Made by a program: the position numbers and the translations under genes
Shown: one piece after another, positions 443 through 62,565 of the stretch
Position numbering within the stretch: position 1 is the first letter of the stretch
How the letters are laid out: each line of letters opens with the position of its first letter
Source of the DNA: an uncultured archaeon
GTDB lineage: Archaea; Thermoproteota; EX4484-205; JAAOZP01
DNA length: 64,000 nt
Assembly: GCA_938045545.1 (NCBI GenBank)
Contig: CALIBN010000012.1
Location: forward strand, 32,001-96,000
Direction of reading: 5' to 3'
The notes under the pieces: model-generated
Database searches by the model: none
What the model saw: the letters and a program-made list of their open reading frames with translations, nothing else
What the model was told of the DNA's origin: nothing

Positions 443-1108
443 TTAATCTTCCCTCTCCTTCTTCTTTCTTTTCTCTTCATAAATTTGTTTCATAAGCTCA
501 AACTTTTCCTGATGGCTTGGCTTTTCAGATCCTATCTCCTCTAGGAATCTTAAGTGTTCCTCTTCAGGGATTCTAAAATAGTAATAGGTTCTATCATCCT
601 TATGATACTCGTGGATTTCAAGGGGATGAAAACCTAAATCTTCGAGAAGGTTCCTTATCTCCTCTAATCCCTCCTTGTACTTAGAGTCAAAACGTATCCT
701 ATTCTGAGTCCTATCATACTCCATAGCAACACCATCATCTCCCGTGAAAAAGCCCCTGAGATAGGCCCTCGCGCCCTTTAAGTCCAAGTGTTCTTTTTGC
801 ACATGGAACTCATAAGGTGACGGTCCCTTAATTCCGAGACTCCATAGGTCAAAATATATACTCCTGTCCTCTATTTCTTCAGAGTAGTGAGGGATTAGGG
901 TGGTTCATACCTGTATCCATGTGGTCTCATGATAAATTTCCTCAAATAGTTCTTCATAATGCTTGGCCACTTCTTCGTCTGCTGAGGAGAGATATACACG
1001 GTAGTGGCGGTAGTTTTCATTCATATGGAGACCACCATCCGACGCTATTAAGCCACAGAGTTCCGCTTTTTCAGGAGCAAGTATTTCTCTAATGCCCCCT
1101 TCGGATAC
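443..1108 (-). pseudogene. Free-standing double-motif LAGLIDADG endonuclease, interrupted by TGA
   Basis: Motif 1 AELCGLIASDG lies upstream of an in-frame TGA at 905-907. Motif 2 AYLRGFFTGDDG lies in ORF 443-802. No intein splice residues seen. Start approximate. Confidence 0.75.
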
Positions 1109-1110
1109 CT

Positions 1111-1383
1111 CTAGATATATCTCCTGCTTAACTCAAAGAGGATTCTGTCATCTTGAATTATGGATTCCTTAAATACTCCTATAACTTCCTCCCCTGTAAG
1201 CAGCTCACGTCCTTTCTCTGTTCCTTGTACTTCATATTCTTCAAAGGTTGCAATAATGTGAGAAACATCATTTTCATCTTCTCTGCATTGAAGTTCAGCT
1301 CCCTCTTCAAATGCTCCTTCATACTCTATCTCGCCCACGAAAAACCTTTCTTTCCATTGCCCTACTCTTGTTCCACCGCCCAT
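1111..1383 (-). CDS. Small acidic hypothetical protein
   Basis: 90-aa ORF whose start overlaps the stop of the upstream TGT-like gene. Confidence 0.55.
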   Translation of the reverse strand: MGGGTRVGQWKERFFVGEIEYEGAFEEGAELQCREDENDVSHIIATFEEYEVQGTEKGRELLTGEEVIGVFKESIIQDDRILFELSRRYI

Positions 1384-2501
1384 TACTTTCTCTTCAACCT
1401 CTCTTTTTGAAAGGTCCTCTGCATATCTAACAGGTTGTGAAGGACCAGTATCCTAAAACCTGCTTCCTTATGGTTGAACATAAGATCAATAATCTCCTGA
1501 GGCATCATCCCCTTACAGACTTCACAATTGCATTCTTCAAACCTAACCTCTGAATCATTAAGCATTAATGGTATCCCGTTCCTAAAATAGAGCCCGTGCT
1601 TTGCGTCTAGAAACCATGAAAGATTACTGTAACTCAATGGTTCATATTTTAGCTTCCTACTCACTCCGTATATGATTAGCTCAAAATTAGTCCTAAGCCT
1701 TCTTGAAGCCCTCTTTAGACTCCATAGGGCGTTCTCAACGGGATTGTTGGAAAAGAAGAGCTTAGTTGACCTTCTCTAAAAAGCTCCCTCGCGGGCATGG
1801 CGAATGAAACATAACCCATTTCCATCTGCTTCCTAACTACTAAATCTATTTGCAGAGCATTAGCACCCTTAACCAGACCTATTAGAGGTATATCCAGTTT
1901 AAGGAAGTCGTTTGCAAAGGATATGAGACGGAAGGTTTGCGACCAAGATAGGAACAAGGGGTCGTCACTATAAGTATAGTTGTCCGGGATCATGGTAGCA
2001 TCGGGCCTAAGATCCTCGATTAGCTTAAGGTAATCTTTAGTGGATAGCTTATCGATGAGCTCGTCAGGCATAACCAAGGATAGAAAGATTCTTCCATTGA
2101 ACCCTAACTAATCATGTAGCCCCCTTAAAGCCTCATTCGATACCTTTTTGTGAAGTAGAATCTCTCCAAAAGAGACGAAAATCGCTGGGAATTCAATACC
2201 GTGCTTCCAGAACCAAGATCTGGAATCGGTAATATCAATTCTTGGAACAAACTCTCGAAAGCCAACTATAGTCATGGGTTTTCTACCCAGATGCGGAAGC
2301 TGAACCGGAGTCCTATCACTGGTCCTAAACGGACAGTAGGTCTTAAGCCTACAGAAGATCTTGGAGAAGTTATTCCACTATAACATATGCCTCTTTTTAC
2401 ACGAGAGCGCAAGACAACCGGCTGAGACCGTGACAAAGATCCTTAGCGAAGTAGAAACAGTTTTTACAGTCGAGCCCGCATGGCGCCCTCCTCTTCATCA
2501 T
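1383..2501 (-). pseudogene. TGT/DpdA-like (tRNA-guanine transglycosylase fold) protein with N-terminal Cys-rich domain, disrupted
   Basis: Reconstructed from ATG 2501 (MMKRRAPCGLDCKNCFYF...) through frameshifts, TAG 2108-2110 (GLHD*LGFNG), ORF 1715-2077 (IPD, IGLVKG) and ORF 1383-1664, which has the TGT-type Zn motif CNCEVC...LHNL. Confidence 0.65.
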
Positions 2502-16919: not shown

Positions 16920-17013
16920 GGGCCCGTGGCCAAGCCAGGATAAAGGCGTCGAGAGGATTGCTCGCGCAGGCCTCCGGAGCCGGAGAACCTGGGTTCAAAT
17001 CCCAGCGGGCCCG
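16920..17013 (+). tRNA. tRNA-Arg(CCG) with an 18-nt non-canonical intron at 29/30 (16952-16969)
   Basis: Acceptor GGGCCCG/CGGGCCC, T-arm CTGGG-TTCAAAT-CCCAG, anticodon CCG 16974-16976. BHB: GCGT/GCGC helix, bulges CG|A and AG|G, inner helix GAG/CTC. Confidence 0.9.
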
Positions 17014-17119
17014 CTGCCCCAGGTTTGACGCGTTAAAAGGGTACGAACATGCTCGGGGAAAGTTTGTGTTTTTGTCCTGGAAAAAAGGTTTCCAGACGAT
17101 GCTGGTTAACGGCTTAGCT

Positions 17120-45467: not shown

Positions 45468-45558
45468 GGGCCGGTAGTTCAGTGGTAGAATACCCGCTTG
45501 GCGACCAGGAAAAAGGCCAGAATGCGGGGGGTCGTGGGTTCGAGTCCCACCCGGTCCA
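45468..45558 (+). tRNA. tRNA-Ala(GGC) with a 19-nt canonical 37/38 intron (45504-45522)
   Basis: Acceptor GGGCCGG/CCGGTCC with G3-U70, anticodon GGC 45500-45502. BHB helix TTGG/CCAG with bulges CG|A and AA|T. Upstream TATA (CTTAAATA). Confidence 0.93.
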
Positions 45559-55379: not shown

Positions 55380-58325
55380 CTATCCTTTAACCACGCCTAG
55401 TGGCACTAGCCTAGCAACCTTAAGTGAAATCCCCGCTCTATCTGTGACCTCCACAACCTCGTCAGGATCCTTATACGCACCCGGTGCTTCTTCGGCAACA
55501 AGGTTCATGTCTGCAACCCTAAGGTAGACACCCCTTTCCTCAAGCATCCCCCTTATCTGCCTGCTCGTAAACCTCCGCATCGCCTCATGCCTGCTCAGCA
55601 TCCTTCCGGCACCATGCGCAGTCGAGCCGAAGCTTGCCTCCATCGCAGTCTCAGTCCCAACGAGAACCCAGCTTGCTGAGCCCATTGAACCGGGTATTAG
55701 AACCGGTTGGCCATACTCTCTATATTTTGAGGGGATATGACTGCTTCCGGGCGGGAAAGATCTAGTCGCGCCCTTCCTGTGGACGACAACCCTTTTCTTC
55801 TCCCCGTTAACCCTGTGGTCCTCAATCTTAGCGATGTTGTGTGCAACATCATACAGAATATTCAAGCCGAACTCGGAAGCATCCTTTTTGAAAACCTTCG
55901 CGAAGCTCTCCCTGACCCAGTGGGTGATAACCTGCCTGTTAAGGAAAGCATAGTTTACGGCGCAAGCCATAGCAGCAAAGTAGTCCCTGGCCTCGTGGCT
56001 CTCAACAGGAACGGCTGCTAGCTCCCTATCCGGCAACCAGATGTTATGCTTCCTGCTAGCCACCTCCATTGTTTTAAGATAATCTGAGCAAACCTGATGG
56101 CCGTATCCTCGACTTCCCGTATGTATTAATACCACGATCTGACCGGTTCTCTCGATTCCGAATCCTCTGGCCACTTCCCCGTCGATAATTCTCTCCACGT
56201 AATCTATTTCGAGAAAATGGTTTCCGCTTCCCAGGCTGCCCAACTGGGGAAGGCCACGCCTCTTAGCGGTGACGCTGACCCTGCTCGGGTCCGCTCCCCT
56301 TAGGCAGCCGTTCTCCTCGATGAATTCCGCGTCCTCCTTCCAGCCGTATCCCCGCTTAATAGCCCAATCGACGCCTTCTCTGACAGCACTATCCAGCTCG
56401 TCGAAGCTCATTCTAAGCTTGCCTTCAGAGCCAAGGCCTGAAGGTACATTATGGAATATCTCGTCGAGAAGCTCTCTCAGAACAGGCTTAACGTTGTCAA
56501 CATTCAGATTCGTCAGCAGGAGGCGTACGCCACAGTTTGAAACCACGAAGCCGTTGGCTATGAAATTATGAACGTCTTCTTTAACAGTAAAATCGTAAAC
56601 ATCTTCGTTGAACAGTAGTTCCTCCTTCTTAACAACCCTATCCCAGACGACGCCTGTTTTGCCGAGACCCTTCGTCACTGACTCTAGAAAATCCTCGAAG
56701 GAGGGGAGGTTTAACGGTGCTCTCGGAAGACTTTTCCTGCCCTCATATAGAGATCTTTCAATAAACCTTCTGTTCACGTATTCAGACTCCAGAGCTTCAT
56801 ATATAGTTACATTAGACGAGCCTCCGTTCTTCATAGCGATAGCTACCTGCTGTACGTTTTCTCTAGCTTTTATCACGCGCATCTTCAGCTTCAAGTAGTG
56901 GATGGCGACGTTTGCAAGATGCTTCTTCTCCCTGTTATACTCAAACCCTACTTTACTCCATAGTTTGACCAAATTTTTCGGAGAACCGGATATTATTAGG
57001 CGGAGCCTGGTTGAAACACCTTGTTTCCCTTTAACCGCTTCAGGCTCCATGGTTATTTTCTTAACTTTAACTCCGAATTCTCTTAAAAGGAGGGCGATTT
57101 GCTTAAGGAGCTTTACGCCGGCTTCCTCACGACCCTTTTTCTTGTTAAGGCACAGGACAGGCATATAGAAGTTAAATGGATTTGCTGTGACTGTTTTTGG
57201 CTTAGAAAGCTCTGCTCCGAAGAACGCGGCGAGGAAAAGCCTCTTCTGCCAGAGAGGAAGCCGGAATAGCCATTCAGGCAACGCATAGTTCTGCGAGGTC
57301 TTGTTTCCCAAGGGAACACCCATTGCAGCCATAAGCGAGATAAGGCTCCTTGAACAAACCTTAATGCTGTGCTCAATCGTTGTAAAATCATACTTGCCGT
57401 ATTTAGTTTCAACCCTGTGTCTTCTAGCTCTTGAATAGATTTTAGAAGGTTTGAAGCCTACGCGTAAAATATCACTCCCTATATCCTCTAAGTCCTCAGG
57501 CCCGGCGAAGAACCAAGCTGCATGACTCTTCTCGGTATACAGGAGCACGCCGTCACCGAGTATAAAGCCCATTAGCTTAAGCAGATATGGAAACTTACTG
57601 TTGTCGCTCCTCAATGGGAGAAGCCCTCTTTTCCTAAGTTCAGAGATCACTAGCTCTTTTCGGCCGGGAACCTTAAGACGCTTTATATCTTCCTCAGACA
57701 CTATAGTTATGGGCTCAGCACTTTCATACAATACTCCTTCAAAAGGGTAGACAGCCACATCCTCACATCCTATCTCGCTCAACGGCACCATCCCCCGACG
57801 TGTGAGGAAAGGATGGTCCTCCGTAGCTATTATCTCCCTGCCCGATTCTGTTTCAACCCTGAAAACCCTCCGGTTTGGACGAATCTTAATGAAACGCATT
57901 ATCTCAGTAGGTTTGACACCCTTCTCAAGACTAACGCACGTAACCCGTTCACTGTTCCAACTCTTTAAGAACCCCTTAATGGGAAGCCTATAGCCATGTT
58001 CGTGAAGAATCAGGCTGTCCCCGGATAGGCAGTTAATGTCGTAACCCACTCCACCGGGCGACACAACTCCATCTTTAACGTCGAAAGCACCGACTCCTCC
58101 TATTGGGAAACCGTATCCTTCGTGTCCGTCGGGGAGAATGATTGAACTCTTATATATTCCTGGAAGCGTTGCCACGTTTAAACCTTGTTCAACAGTCTTA
58201 TCCTGGGTCATTTTCTGCAAGAGTGTTTCGTTCGCGAAAATTTTAAGCGGCACCCGCATCCCCTTTTTAGCTCCCACATCTACTCGATACTCTACGTCTG
58301 AAACCTTTTCAAACCTGTAGCTCAT
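55380..58325 (-). CDS. rtcB: tRNA-splicing ligase RtcB containing an intein (482 aa after splicing)
   Basis: PDGHEGYGFPIG, GYDIN|CGVR, GSGNHF, HTGSRG, HRKGAT, PGSMG, HGAGR and EEAPGAYK motifs. Confidence 0.97.
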   Translation of the reverse strand: MSYRFEKVSDVEYRVDVGAKKGMRVPLKIFANETLLQKMTQDKTVEQGLNVATLPGIYKSSIILPDGHEGYGFPIGGVGAFDVKDGVVSPGGVGYDINCLSGDSLILHEHGYRLPIKGFLKSWNSERVTCVSLEKGVKPTEIMRFIKIRPNRRVFRVETESGREIIATEDHPFLTRRGMVPLSEIGCEDVAVYPFEGVLYESAEPITIVSEEDIKRLKVPGRKELVISELRKRGLLPLRSDNSKFPYLLKLMGFILGDGVLLYTEKSHAAWFFAGPEDLEDIGSDILRVGFKPSKIYSRARRHRVETKYGKYDFTTIEHSIKVCSRSLISLMAAMGVPLGNKTSQNYALPEWLFRLPLWQKRLFLAAFFGAELSKPKTVTANPFNFYMPVLCLNKKKGREEAGVKLLKQIALLLREFGVKVKKITMEPEAVKGKQGVSTRLRLIISGSPKNLVKLWSKVGFEYNREKKHLANVAIHYLKLKMRVIKARENVQQVAIAMKNGGSSNVTIYEALESEYVNRRFIERSLYEGRKSLPRAPLNLPSFEDFLESVTKGLGKTGVVWDRVVKKEELLFNEDVYDFTVKEDVHNFIANGFVVSNCGVRLLLTNLNVDNVKPVLRELLDEIFHNVPSGLGSEGKLRMSFDELDSAVREGVDWAIKRGYGWKEDAEFIEENGCLRGADPSRVSVTAKRRGLPQLGSLGSGNHFLEIDYVERIIDGEVARGFGIERTGQIVVLIHTGSRGYGHQVCSDYLKTMEVASRKHNIWLPDRELAAVPVESHEARDYFAAMACAVNYAFLNRQVITHWVRESFAKVFKKDASEFGLNILYDVAHNIAKIEDHRVNGEKKRVVVHRKGATRSFPPGSSHIPSKYREYGQPVLIPGSMGSASWVLVGTETAMEASFGSTAHGAGRMLSRHEAMRRFTSRQIRGMLEERGVYLRVADMNLVAEEAPGAYKDPDEVVEVTDRAGISLKVARLVPLGVVKG
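56535..58031 (-). mobile_element. 499-aa intein with LAGLIDADG homing endonuclease
   Basis: Starts CLSGD, block B ATEDHPF, motifs LMGFILGDG and FLAAFFGAE, ends VYDFTV...HNFIANGFVVSN followed by Cys+1. Confidence 0.95.
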
Positions 58326-58330
58326 TTCTC

Positions 58331-58372
58331 GGGATCACCCTTTAGGGTTTCCAGATTTCCCCGGGTGACCCC
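58331..58372 (-). promoter_or_regulatory. BHB-like RNA hairpin in the rtcB 5' leader, masking the SD
   Basis: GGGGUCACCC-GGGG-AAA-UCUGGAAA-CCCU-AAA-GGGUGAUCCC-GAGAA-AUG. Confidence 0.75.
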
Positions 58373-58415
58373 CAGGGACTCAACCTTAAAACTATGGTCT
58401 TCTTCTGCTTCTGGG

Positions 58416-58430
58416 ATTATTAAAGTTTTC
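58416..58430 (-). promoter_or_regulatory. BRE/TATA promoter of rtcB
   Basis: GAAAACTTTAATAAT. It predicts a TSS near 58393 and a ~70-nt leader. Confidence 0.55.
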
Positions 58431-58657
58431 TACCAAGTCTTGCTGTAGGCTTCCTTGGCCTTTGGAATTCTTAATCTTTAGGTTGAGTTGTGAAAGATAG
58501 AAGTGCAGGAGAGTAGGAAACACCGGTCGTTGGGGCAAGATATATTTTAAGCCTTTTGGCATTTCTAGATTGCGAGCAGTTCAAACGAAATAAAAGGGTG
58601 ATTAAGTTTGAAAGACTTCAACTTTAATAGTAGCCTAGGTGTTTCGTAACCGTAAGC

Positions 58658-60557
58658 ATGCTGAAAATGCGATGCGAAGCACCAGCCAAAAAATCCTTGC
58701 CAATTTCATCAATGCAGCCTAACAAAAACACGAAAGAAAAAATGTGGGTATACTACTTAATTCTTGTGGTTCTCATAGCCGCTTTACTTCTAATCCTCCG
58801 GCAGCTTTATATAGAACAACTACTCTATCTAAAAGAAACTCTGAAAGAACCTATGGAGCCTGCGAAACTCTCTTTCGCTGAAGTTCAATTATCTAACTAG
58901 AATCCTAGGGTTTATGAGCTTGTAGAGGTGAACATCAGACTCGATGGCAACATAAGCGATCCGTTTGATGAAAACGAGGTGAGTATAAAATCTGAGGTAG
59001 TTCTTCCAGATGGTAGGAAATGGAATATTCAAGCCTTCTTTTACCAAGATTATGAGAGAAGCCTCGCGAACGATATGGAGGTCTTGGTTCCCTCAGGAAA
59101 GCCATATTGGAAGTTGAGGTTTACACCCATATTAGAGGGGGAGTATTCTGTGAATTTATACGTCTATTCTAGAGGTAGACCTATGGATTCATATGAACTA
59201 TCTTTAGGCGCGAGTGGTTATTCGCATGACGCGGGTTTTGTAAGGTTAAAAGATAATTACCTAGTTTGTGATAACGGATCCGACCTTTTTCTAATCGGTC
59301 AGAATGTTTGTTAGTATGGCCCATCTAAGAAAACATACGATTATGACATTTGGTTGGAAAAATGGCGGAGAATGGTATGAATTACGCAAGAATATGGATG
59401 GCCCCTTGGGCGTTTGCAGTAGAGTGGAATAATAAGGCAGGCAAGTATGATTTGAAAGAGGCATGGAGACTAGACTATATCCTAAGGCTTGCGGAGGAGA
59501 AGGGAATATACTTGATGCTGTGCCTAGTCAACCATGGGCAACTTAGGGAAAGCGATAACTGGAGTGGGAATCCTTATAATAAGGCTAGGGTAGGACCATT
59601 ATCCTCGCCTGAGAAATTCTTCATGGATTCTACTGCAAAGGACCTTTTCAAGAAAAGGCTTAGATACTTAGTCTCAAGATATGCTTACAGCACCCATCTG
59701 TTAGCCTGGGAGTTTTTCAACGAAGTCGAGTTAACAGACAACTATAACCCTTCCAACGTGGCGAACTGGCATAAAGAGATGGCGGACTACTTGAGAAGCA
59801 TCGACCCATATAAACATTTAATCACTACAAGTTTCGGGGGACCAAGGGAAGGAGATCTAATTCGGAGAACATTCGGTTTAGATTCCACGCAGACGCACAT
59901 GTATGGTCCAGACGTTAAGGATCTTGCAGGAGTGATTTCACGCGAAATAAAAAGGAAGCTATCAACATATGGAAAGCCAACCCTATTCGGAGAATTTGGC
60001 GCCGACTGGAGATGGTTCGACTCCCCATTATATTATAAGGATAAGGAAGGTGTCGAGGTCCATGAGGGTATATGGGCCTCTCTTATGAGCGGATCCTTTG
60101 GAACAGCGATGTTATGGTGGTGGGATGTTTACGTCGACCCATATAACCTATACTATCATTACAATGCTTTGAGAAAATTCGTGGCAAAACATTAGCTTCA
60201 GCAGATCCGGATTTACTGAGCTCAAGTATAGGCTGGTTGACAATAAGAAGATTAATGCGTCGAACATTAATTTCGAGATTTTTGGTCTTAGAAACGAAAC
60301 GTTCGCAATGGGTTGGGTGAGAAACAAAGATTACAACTGGTTTAATGCTATCAGCAACGTTACTCTTAAGCTAGTTGGAGGAATGATGTAGAGTTCGTAG
60401 AATTTAACCCGGGAAGCTACTTATTGGAGGTATGGAATACGTATACTGGGGAAAGAACGGGACTTAGCAAAATAGAATCCGCTAACGGTAAGCTTGTGGT
60501 GGAGATTCCTTCTTTTCTTAAAGACATATCCTTTAAAGTAATCATGGTTGAAAAATA
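58658..60557 (+). pseudogene. Membrane-anchored DUF5060 plus GH5-like glycoside hydrolase, disrupted
   Basis: Fragments with DPFDENEV, AWEFFNE (acid/base), FGEFG (nucleophile) and MLWWWD. TAG at 58898 and 59312, frameshifts near 59345 and 60190. Confidence 0.8.
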
Positions 60558-61914: not shown

Positions 61915-62565
61915 ACCTTGTTACCTGCAGCTCTCATCCTTAGGAATAGGACAACCAGCTCTTTAACATCCCCCTCGTCTAAGAGCGCGATCTCCCTTAG
62001 CGAATGCTTTTCCTCCAAGCTTCTGATGAACTCATTGCCAAGGAAATATCCTGTCTGCTTTATTCCCTTCCCAAGATCCGAAGAAATCTCTCATCTGAGA
62101 CTTAGATTCCGGTTTTTCAACTCCCTCGCCAAACCGCTTCTATGCGCTTTATACCAGTTACTCAGTCATCATCCTGAGCCTGATGCCAACTCTTCCTTCC
62201 TAATGAAACATGTTCACATTTTTTGGCAAAGCCTTCAATTTATGGTAGGACCAGGGATCCCGCTCCATTTCCTTAAAACGCTCCCACTCGTTCCTCCATG
62301 CCATATGAGCGAGGTGCTCGATTTCGTGAACCATAAGGCCTTGAAGCCTATTCATCATCAGTATGTTCTCTGAAAGCCTTGAGAAAACCTTCTCTCTTGC
62401 AATTGTCCTCCAGTCTAAGCCTTCACCCTCATAGTTCTCCAATTGTTTCCTCAGCAACTCAGGGTACTTCTCCATGTACGATGCCTGCCAGAGATGGATT
62501 TGATGCTCCATGTCCATTGAGGAGGCAGTATACCAGTAAGTTAAGGAAGTTTTCATACGTGTCAA
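61915..62565 (-). pseudogene. Fragmented hypothetical gene
   Basis: ORF 62200-62565 plus downstream frames (TGYFLGNEFIRSLEEKHSLREIALL); boundaries approximate. Confidence 0.4.

Follow-up and report, generated by a model that had tools for sequence, protein, structure and literature searches.

Why should the messenger RNA of a ligase begin with a hairpin shaped like a substrate of the endonuclease whose products that ligase joins? The question is raised by a 64,000-nucleotide (nt) stretch of DNA from an uncultured archaeon of the Thermoproteota (contig CALIBN010000012.1, positions 32,001 to 96,000; hereafter the window). Here the leader of rtcB, the gene for the ligase that joins the products of the splicing endonuclease EndA, can fold so that a motif of the EndA type lies over the Shine-Dalgarno (SD) sequence. 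We conclude that this leader element is real, conserved and previously undescribed, and that it is almost certainly a functional RNA structure that masks the SD. EndA probably cuts it in vivo. Splicing-based control is the best explanation that we can offer and is unproven; to the full negative-feedback circuit set out below, in which the ligase silences its own mRNA, we assign a probability of about 0.4.

The rtcB leader hairpin

The rtcB product matches PF01139 at E 2.6e-164 and, in addition, the intein splicing domain PF14890 (Pfam). A spacer of 5 nt (58330-58326) separates its AUG from a hairpin composed of a 10-bp outer stem (including one G-U), a central helix GGGG/CCCU of three G-C pairs and one G-U, and two AAA bulges, every part lying where a preliminary description of this DNA had placed it (Table 1). 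The 3-nt 3' bulge stands between the outer helix and a central helix of exactly 4 bp. RNAfold returns stem, 3' bulge and 4-bp helix as its minimum-free-energy (MFE) fold at -29.5 kcal/mol (z -2.59), and 2 of 200 shuffled sequences fold as well. That description had gone on to read a two-bulge bulge-helix-bulge (BHB) motif. Its stem, central helix and 3' bulge stand in the RNAfold structure; the closure of the 5' bulge by a lone U-A pair does not, that pair being unformed, so the window motif is a bulge-helix-loop and not a strict BHB. The strict hBHBh' form, as Marck and Grosjean reportedly defined it in 2003, has a 3-nt bulge in its 5' strand, closed by an inner helix of 2 bp or more, and no inner helix of that length closes the 5' bulge in the window.

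The SD lies within the 3' arm, as had been proposed: GGUGAUC is complementary to GAUCACC at all three 16S rRNA 3' ends in the assembly, and the probability that this arm is unpaired is 0.039 in the unspliced window leader at 37 °C and 0.001 after in-silico splicing. The leader thus combines the two features of SD sequestration, complementarity to the 16S end and pairing near the start codon, and the same is true of the two further clades described below. The three 16S 3' ends themselves differ (G000 contigs C16, minus strand, near 62097; C20, plus strand, near 77; C36, plus strand, near 1641), and the flank of the C20 copy looks bacterial, so the bin may include some foreign contigs, or the genome several rRNA operons.

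The hairpin resembles an intron found in the same window. ARAGORN places a 19-nt intron at position 37/38 of tRNA-Ala(GGC) (45468-45558), and the pre-tRNA, parsed by hand, has a 3-nt bulge on each side of a 4-bp helix and an inner helix of 2 bp; both cuts fall after the second bulge base. (With long introns allowed, ARAGORN gave false tRNAs with introns of 1.6-2.4 kb, and only short-intron calls were kept.) The topological likeness that had been claimed holds. Applied to the leader, the tRNA-Ala cut rule reproduces the 15-nt intron 58356-58342 suggested earlier, and its removal would, from geometry, leave the predicted 7-nt loop, as removal of a canonical 37/38 intron does in a pre-tRNA. The spliced loop would also have a purine at '37' and an A at '38', as in tRNA, in all 29 distinct leaders compared below. 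The leader differs from a tRNA in lacking both the tRNA body and a U at the '33' position, and the window hairpin has an inner helix of 1 bp against 2 bp in tRNA-Ala and an outer helix of 10 bp against 5.

Other readings of the hairpin were set aside. A UUG-started frame of 13 codons runs through it to a UAA in the 3' bulge; this upstream open reading frame (ORF) was rejected because loops of 9-14 nt within the genus break the frame and other leaders have no in-frame start. A kink-turn has tandem sheared G-A and A-G pairs after its 3-nt bulge; in the window, G58340 and G58339 at that place are Watson-Crick-paired with C58363 and C58364, with no sheared G-A/A-G pairs. Rfam searches of window positions 57800-59000 gave best matches at E 2.5-8, far under gathering scores, and those of the related leaders L215, L267, L268 and L057 gave zero matches at E <= 1. 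Elsewhere in the assembly (G000 contig C38, minus strand, scanner index 37147) lies another hairpin of bulge-helix-loop shape, with an 11-bp outer stem and GGAGGAGG in its 3' arm, 9 nt 5' of a 314-aa frame.

Table 1. The rtcB gene, the parts of its leader and associated frames (window positions unless a contig is named)
Feature	Position	Strand	Remarks
rtcB coding sequence	55380..58325	-	981 aa, RtcB plus intein; AUG 58325-58323, 5 nt 3' of hairpin
Outer helix, 5' arm (anti-SD mimic)	58363..58372	-	pairs with 58340-58331
Outer helix, 3' arm with SD GGUGAUC	58331..58340	-	sequence and RNAfold
Central helix, 5' strand GGGG	58359..58362	-	4 bp
Central helix, 3' strand CCCU	58344..58347	-	RNAfold and genus comparison
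5' bulge AAA	58356..58358	-	predicted 5' cut between 58357 and 58356
3' bulge AAA	58341..58343	-	separates both helices; predicted 3' cut between 58342 and 58341
Apical part	58348..58355	-	possible closing pair U58355-A58348, 6-nt loop
Predicted 15-nt mini-intron	58342..58356	-	from geometry and cut rule
Conserved 5' flank UCCCUG	58373..58378	-	complementary to 58363-58358
B recognition element (BRE)/TATA-like box, GAAAAC + TTTAATAA	58417..58430	-	sequence; similar box in genus
Weaker AT-rich stretch TTTTAA	58386..58391	-	partly conserved in genus
EndA-family ORF, clade 3, L391 (G076:C9)	1684-2262	+	192 aa
EndA-family ORF, clade 3, L392 (G091:C98)	630-1298	-	222 aa

Conservation in three clades and covariation in two

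All 15 rtcB loci of the genus (the window and 14 other genomes with an rtcB N-terminus) have the element. Stem, 4-bp helix and 3-nt 3' bulge are constant in length, and the loops measure 9-14 nt. The 10 pairs of the outer helix are kept in 15/15 leaders, three of them varying on one side only (C>U, G>A), and five stem pairs vary within the genus, always in ways that preserve pairing. A closing pair (U-A, U-G or C-G) is possible in 11 of the 15. An extension of the stem by a C-G and a U-A pair across a G/G mismatch was not counted, as it is broken in two of the 15 leaders. A covariance model of the genus element (R1) found one match in the window's own genome at E 1.5e-19 (next best E 1.4) and one strong match per genome in 15 of 17 genus genomes; the two negative genomes, 70% and 82% complete, also have no rtcB match. 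A second, weak R1 match was seen in one relative (G016:C34:16784-16838, plus strand, L051; 23.6 bits, E 0.007). Intein-bearing RtcB also occurs in G006, G008 and G016 (open frames of 975-985 aa), RtcB of intein-less length (485-506 aa) occurs in 11 genus relatives, and the leader element is alike at both kinds of locus.

The geometry recurs outside the genus. We used a sequence-blind scanner (a 4-bp helix with at most one G-U, a 3' side with exactly three bases unpaired, and a set length for the outer stem) on rtcB leaders from 80 metagenome loci and 80 loci of species-representative genomes, with targeted searches around the positives. Two further clades of Thermoproteota emerged. In clade 2 (G041, G042, G043, G044, G045, G048 and contig L057, with a degenerate copy in G047) the RtcB N-terminus is 65-72% identical to that of the window. 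Its central helix reads CGAG/CUCG, CAGG/CCUG or CGGG/CCUG, both bulges are AAA, a closing A-U pair is present in 8/8 leaders, and the inner helix has 1-3 bp. A model designated R2 gave one strong match, at rtcB, in each of five clade-2 genomes, and in the genomes that carry R1 or R2 matches the element was found only at rtcB. Clade 3 (G091, G076, G051 and G085; RtcB N-terminus 55-60% identical) has unrelated arms and the central helices GGCC/GGCC, GAUC/GGUC or GACC/GGUC. With a 5' bulge AGA and an inner helix of 3-4 bp, its leaders form the canonical hBHBh' motif in the strict sense; the SD (GAGGUG and similar) lies within the 3' arm, and it is this arm that ends 4-6 nt before the start. Contig L062 is a further single case, as is G022, from the window's own order, whose weakened copy R2 also detected (E 1.7e-6). 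All carriers have the SD in the 3' arm, and 0-6 nt separate the end of that arm from the start codon.

Compensatory change accompanies this recurrence. In clade 2, three pairs changed on both sides (seven cells), and 97.5% of cells are paired, against 26-47% in slid registers; the values for clade 3 are seven pairs, nine cells and 91% against 33-48%. The observed covariation score was equalled by 0 of 500 shuffles in either clade. The central helix differs in sequence across clades and remains 4 bp. Among 29 distinct leaders, the 3' bulge is exactly 3 nt and ends in A in 29/29, the first two bases of the 5' bulge are purines in 29/29, a closing pair is possible in 23, and the central helix is complete in 27, L017 and L220 having only three of four pairs. 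The 96% pairing in the segment table of these leaders is partly built in, because its rows were picked by a scanner that demands pairing, with L017, L220, L269 and L270 added by hand. A cross-clade MAFFT alignment (A3), aligned by sequence and not by structure, was excluded from the counts.

Under fixed criteria, 28 of 234 distinct rtcB leaders were positive, against 0.76 per dinucleotide-shuffled set, and five false anchor points gave 0, 1, 0, 3 and 3 positives. Some scanner matches were judged to be chance: L327, whose 'loop' is a TATA box common to relatives without the 5' arm; L338 and L361, which are AT-rich with outer stems of 6-7 bp and no closing pair; and L072, with a 6-bp outer stem containing G-U pairs, which is nevertheless counted in the 28. 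The preliminary description had proposed a search of relatives' leaders for a conserved, covarying 3-4-3 geometry, and that geometry is what the 15 genus loci and the two further clades display. Its interpretation is partly supported: the comparative prediction came out as expected, and transcription through the hairpin, cleavage, religation and an effect on translation are steps that we infer from sequence. An EndA motif is set exactly over the ribosome-binding site of a repair-enzyme gene in three lineages whose sequences differ.

A proposed circuit and its alternatives

We propose the following circuit. The rtcB mRNA would have a leader of about 70 nt, whose hairpin pairs the SD with an upstream anti-SD mimic and is capped by the EndA-type motif. 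In the transcript as made, the SD would be masked and little RtcB produced. EndA would cleave both bulges and free the 15-nt piece. When RtcB is plentiful, the exons would be resealed into a 10-bp hairpin with a 7-nt loop, leaving the SD masked and no further cutting possible. When RtcB is scarce, the halves would stay unjoined, held by only 10 intermolecular pairs; the 5' half would fold on itself through a conserved upstream element, the halves would separate, and the freed 3' half, starting one base before the SD, would be translated. The ligase would in this way silence its own mRNA, giving negative feedback on ligation capacity. We suggest tentatively that exposure of the SD is decided between resealing by RtcB and the halves falling apart, so that the ligase would gauge its own spare capacity.

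The circuit asks for a transcript that contains the whole hairpin. Counting the usual archaeal TATA spacing of about 25 nt from the BRE/TATA-like box predicts a transcription start near 58394 and hence a leader of the required length, about 70 nt. A similar box lies 38-55 nt 5' of the hairpin in 15/15 genus leaders, with variable sequence in between, and clades 2 and 3 have similar boxes about 100 nt before the start codon.

It also asks for a suitable endonuclease. The window's own genome has two PF01974 (EndA) paralogs over the cut-off, on contigs C40 and C42; by our own reading of the translations, one appears to keep the Tyr/His/Lys pattern and the other to have no catalytic His. A two-subunit EndA type is reported to cut relaxed motifs (PMC5829648), and an endonuclease of a type able to do so thus appears to be encoded in this genome. 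Two paralogs were also found in four of five other carrier genomes searched, G041 giving a single match. In clade 3 the lower-scoring of the paralogs, an EndA-family ORF (PF01974 and PF02778), follows rtcB on the same strand after 45-52 nt, so the BHB leader may there head an rtcB-endA gene pair.

We folded 14 leaders in three states (intact, spliced, and cut but unjoined). The religated form is predicted to stay masked in 12 of them (probability unpaired <= 0.1 at 37 °C). In keeping with the earlier suggestion, the modelled window leader keeps its SD paired both uncut and religated, and only the cut halves could free it. The two exceptions among the 14 are L215 and L267, where the predicted openness of the SD arm rises on intron removal: at 37 °C it reaches 0.13 in L215 and 0.27 in L267, and at 65 °C the values are 0.44 and 0.31. 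For the window's cut halves the dimer has -31.8 kcal/mol against -22.9 for the separate halves at 37 °C, and -14.9 against -9.9 at 65 °C. The dimer is thus favoured by 8.9 and 5.0 kcal/mol, respectively, margins so small because the 5' half folds on itself (-18 kcal/mol); by arithmetic, the dissociation constant would be about 0.5 µM at 37 °C and about 0.6 mM at 65 °C. The tRNA G+C content (0.64, against 0.48 for the genome) suggests that the organism is a thermophile.

Self-folding of the 5' half involves the conserved flank UCCCUG. Its complement, 58363-58358, consists of the last base of the 5' arm, GGGG and the first bulge A, the 3' end of the predicted 5' exon, and the isolated window 5' exon folds through this pairing. 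CCCUG is invariant in the 15 genus leaders (the preceding U is present in 14/15), with 0-4 nt inserted after it. The corresponding element is UUCUUGG in clade 2 and CUGGC in G091; here and in the flanks of L215-L221, L267 and L017, it changes with the central helix between lineages, its complement being the last 5'-arm base, the 5' strand of the central helix and the first one or two bulge bases. The competing helix is worth about -16 to -18 kcal/mol, against -29.5 for the window hairpin, and in the genus a control stretch taken from the 5' arm is nearly as good a pairing partner for the flank. This element may aid separation of the cut halves. A pseudoknot joining its helix to the SD stem was rejected by reasoning, as a loop of 0-4 nt would have to span a stem of 9-10 bp.

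Several observations weigh against the circuit. Within the genus no stem pair has changed on both sides, which amounts to conservation and not covariation there. Across the genus the 5' bulge is closed by 0-2 pairs, and by none in 4 of 15 leaders; in the window MFE fold, the U-A pair is open and the 5' AAA lies within an 11-nt loop. With the 5' bulge so weakly closed in the genus, cleavage at the 5' site would need an enzyme of relaxed specificity. The bare shape is common: an outer stem of at least 8 bp, a 3-nt 3' bulge, a 4-bp helix and a loop of 7-25 nt occur together 421 times in the 2.03-Mb genome, so a single copy is not significant and the case rests on conservation. (A filter for an ORF of at least 100 aa starting no more than 12 nt away was dropped as non-discriminating, 44 of the 421 passing it.) R1 found the element in none of nine genomes from other genera of the same order. 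The separate lineages are few, three clades and single contigs, and the 28 of 234 is inflated and no measure of prevalence, because relatives of positives were deliberately sought. An evenly drawn phylum sample of 130 genomes outside the window's class (15 + 15 + 100 genomes, with starts placed from known match coordinates) gave three matches to the criteria, all judged chance. The element thus went unseen in these other leaders, and rtcB expression in general does not depend on it. The upstream-element helix reaches a shuffle p <= 0.05 in 12 of 29 leaders and in none of clade 3, and splicing alone is predicted to bring no gain in SD exposure. The start site, the junction, the 5'-OH end and the circle are predictions from sequence alone, a look-up of RNA sequencing runs for window positions 57600-58600 having listed none; the stretch TTTTAA, if it served as TATA box, could put the start near 58362, inside the hairpin. 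No counterpart of this stretch was seen in the clade 2 and 3 leaders inspected.

The serious rival, which we nonetheless hold to be rather unlikely, is a translational operator that is never cut, its SD mask being opened or locked by temperature, by a binding protein or by co-transcriptional pairing of the upstream element. The protein could possibly be RtcB, a non-catalytic EndA, or another tRNA-binding protein that reads the anticodon-arm look-alike. SD masking is our most solid feature, the conserved upstream element forms a competing helix that excludes the central helix, and the organism is probably thermophilic; all three suit such an operator. E. coli thrS is autoregulated through mRNA mimicry of an RNA substrate. 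Control of this kind is also established for archaeal L7Ae (PMC5539422, PMC6298567). The operator leaves unexplained, however, why exact 3-nt bulges and 4 bp persist across three clades as the helix sequences change, and why clade 3 has the full canonical EndA motif; EndA bound to such a motif would be expected to cut it, and in the window the competing helix is far weaker than the hairpin.

Less likely still, EndA cuts the leader to another end: splicing activates, in the manner of HAC1/XBP1, tying rtcB output to EndA, or the cut serves to mark the mRNA for decay. These schemes draw on the same structural and comparative evidence for a BHB, the predicted gain in SD openness of L215 and L267 after intron removal favours activation by splicing, and the rtcB-endA pair of clade 3 would suit co-ordination of both enzymes. 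In Haloferax, moreover, HVO_1309 mRNA falls when EndA is repressed (PMC7714728). Yet the spliced form keeps its SD arm paired in 12 of the 14 modelled leaders, the window included; under activation by splicing RtcB would be needed for RtcB, a positive feedback with no obvious benefit; and a pure decay mark needs no SD in the outer helix, where the SD is found in all three clades.

That the hairpin is functionless, either a chance fold or a DNA inverted repeat (such as a transcription-factor operator) that resembles a BHB, would agree with the 421 bare motifs, with arms that also form an inverted repeat in DNA and with genus changes that are all one-sided transitions, and is very improbable given an enrichment of leaders that is about 37-fold relative to shuffles, a single copy in each genome, always at the same gene, fixed bulge lengths, and tolerated G-U pairs and compensatory changes in clades 2 and 3 that point to pairing in RNA and not in DNA.

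Known systems and surrounding region

BHB processing is known for tRNA, rRNA and two mRNAs, and we know of no such case for which a regulatory circuit has been worked out. For rtcB itself, full-text searches of the literature available to us turned up no BHB, intron or leader structure, and a term look-up in the accessible text of PMC3326292 and PMC13149111 returned none.

The closest precedent is the 5' untranslated region (UTR) of Haloferax volcanii HVO_1309, whose BHB is cut by EndA according to circRNA-seq and in vitro cleavage (PMC7714728, as for the following details). As in the rtcB leader, an EndA-type motif precedes the coding sequence of an mRNA, the piece excised (or in rtcB predicted to be excised) is short, and expression of the gene that follows has been suggested to be affected. 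It differs in its circular 46-nt intron, its 192-nt UTR, its peptidase gene and its euryarchaeal host, and the part of PMC7714728 available to us reports no link to the SD or to splicing enzymes. The rtcB leaders, known from sequence alone, have predicted introns of 13-19 nt, an outer helix that is itself the SD:anti-SD pairing, and the ligase as their gene. In the crenarchaeal cbf5 pre-mRNA (Watanabe 2002, via PMC7714728; Yokobori 2009, PMC2738675), the tRNA splicing machinery likewise acts on an mRNA, in the same phylum; that BHB intron interrupts the coding sequence and must be removed for the protein to be made, whereas the rtcB element is confined to the leader and leaves every codon unaltered.

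HAC1/XBP1 mRNAs undergo unconventional splicing by Ire1 and a tRNA ligase (RtcB in animals). As we propose for rtcB, the cut is non-spliceosomal, a tRNA ligase seals it and translation tracks the state of processing; there, however, Ire1 recognizes stem-loops and splicing activates, whereas in rtcB ligation would silence and the target would be the ligase's own mRNA. The likeness is one of working, not of family membership. SD-sequestering leaders such as RNA thermometers and riboswitch platforms hide the SD in a leader helix, as rtcB does, and archaeal L7Ae autoregulates through an RNA motif, the k-turn, that is handled by the protein's own pathway (PMC5539422, PMC6298567); unlike L7Ae and riboswitch leaders, the rtcB element has no k-turn signature, no evident ligand pocket and no Rfam match. 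We therefore describe it as an EndA-type motif in an mRNA leader, in a new placement and with a plausible new regulatory logic.

Should negative feedback through splicing be true, the rtcB leader would parallel HAC1/XBP1 splicing in archaea, with the logic inverted, and would be the first regulatory, as opposed to maturational, use of BHB processing. Control of mRNA by an endonuclease and a tRNA ligase would then not be a eukaryotic invention, the way in which archaea keep ligase supply in step with the cut tRNA halves to be joined would have a simple and testable explanation, and a protein-operated translational switch of about 45 nt would be at hand for the engineering of thermophiles. If it is never cut, the element is still a leader structure both new and conserved, belonging to an essential RNA-repair gene of archaea about which little is known.

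Around rtcB, a 56-aa frame (58392-58562, minus strand) overlaps the promoter region and a divergent 80-aa frame occupies 58658-58900 on the plus strand. Because neither has a Pfam match, the 333-nt gap between the divergent frame and rtcB looks like a divergent promoter region. Downstream of rtcB lie an AN1 zinc finger/M50 peptidase ORF and a PepSY-like ORF; the neighbours on its other side are ORFs resembling a GH5 cellulase and a flavodoxin. Many tRNA genes of this genome have short introns, some at non-canonical positions (ARAGORN). A 95-nt 'tRNA-Asn (att)' called by ARAGORN at window positions 16920-17014 (plus strand) is, from its length and anticodon, suggestive of a mis-parsed intron-containing tRNA.

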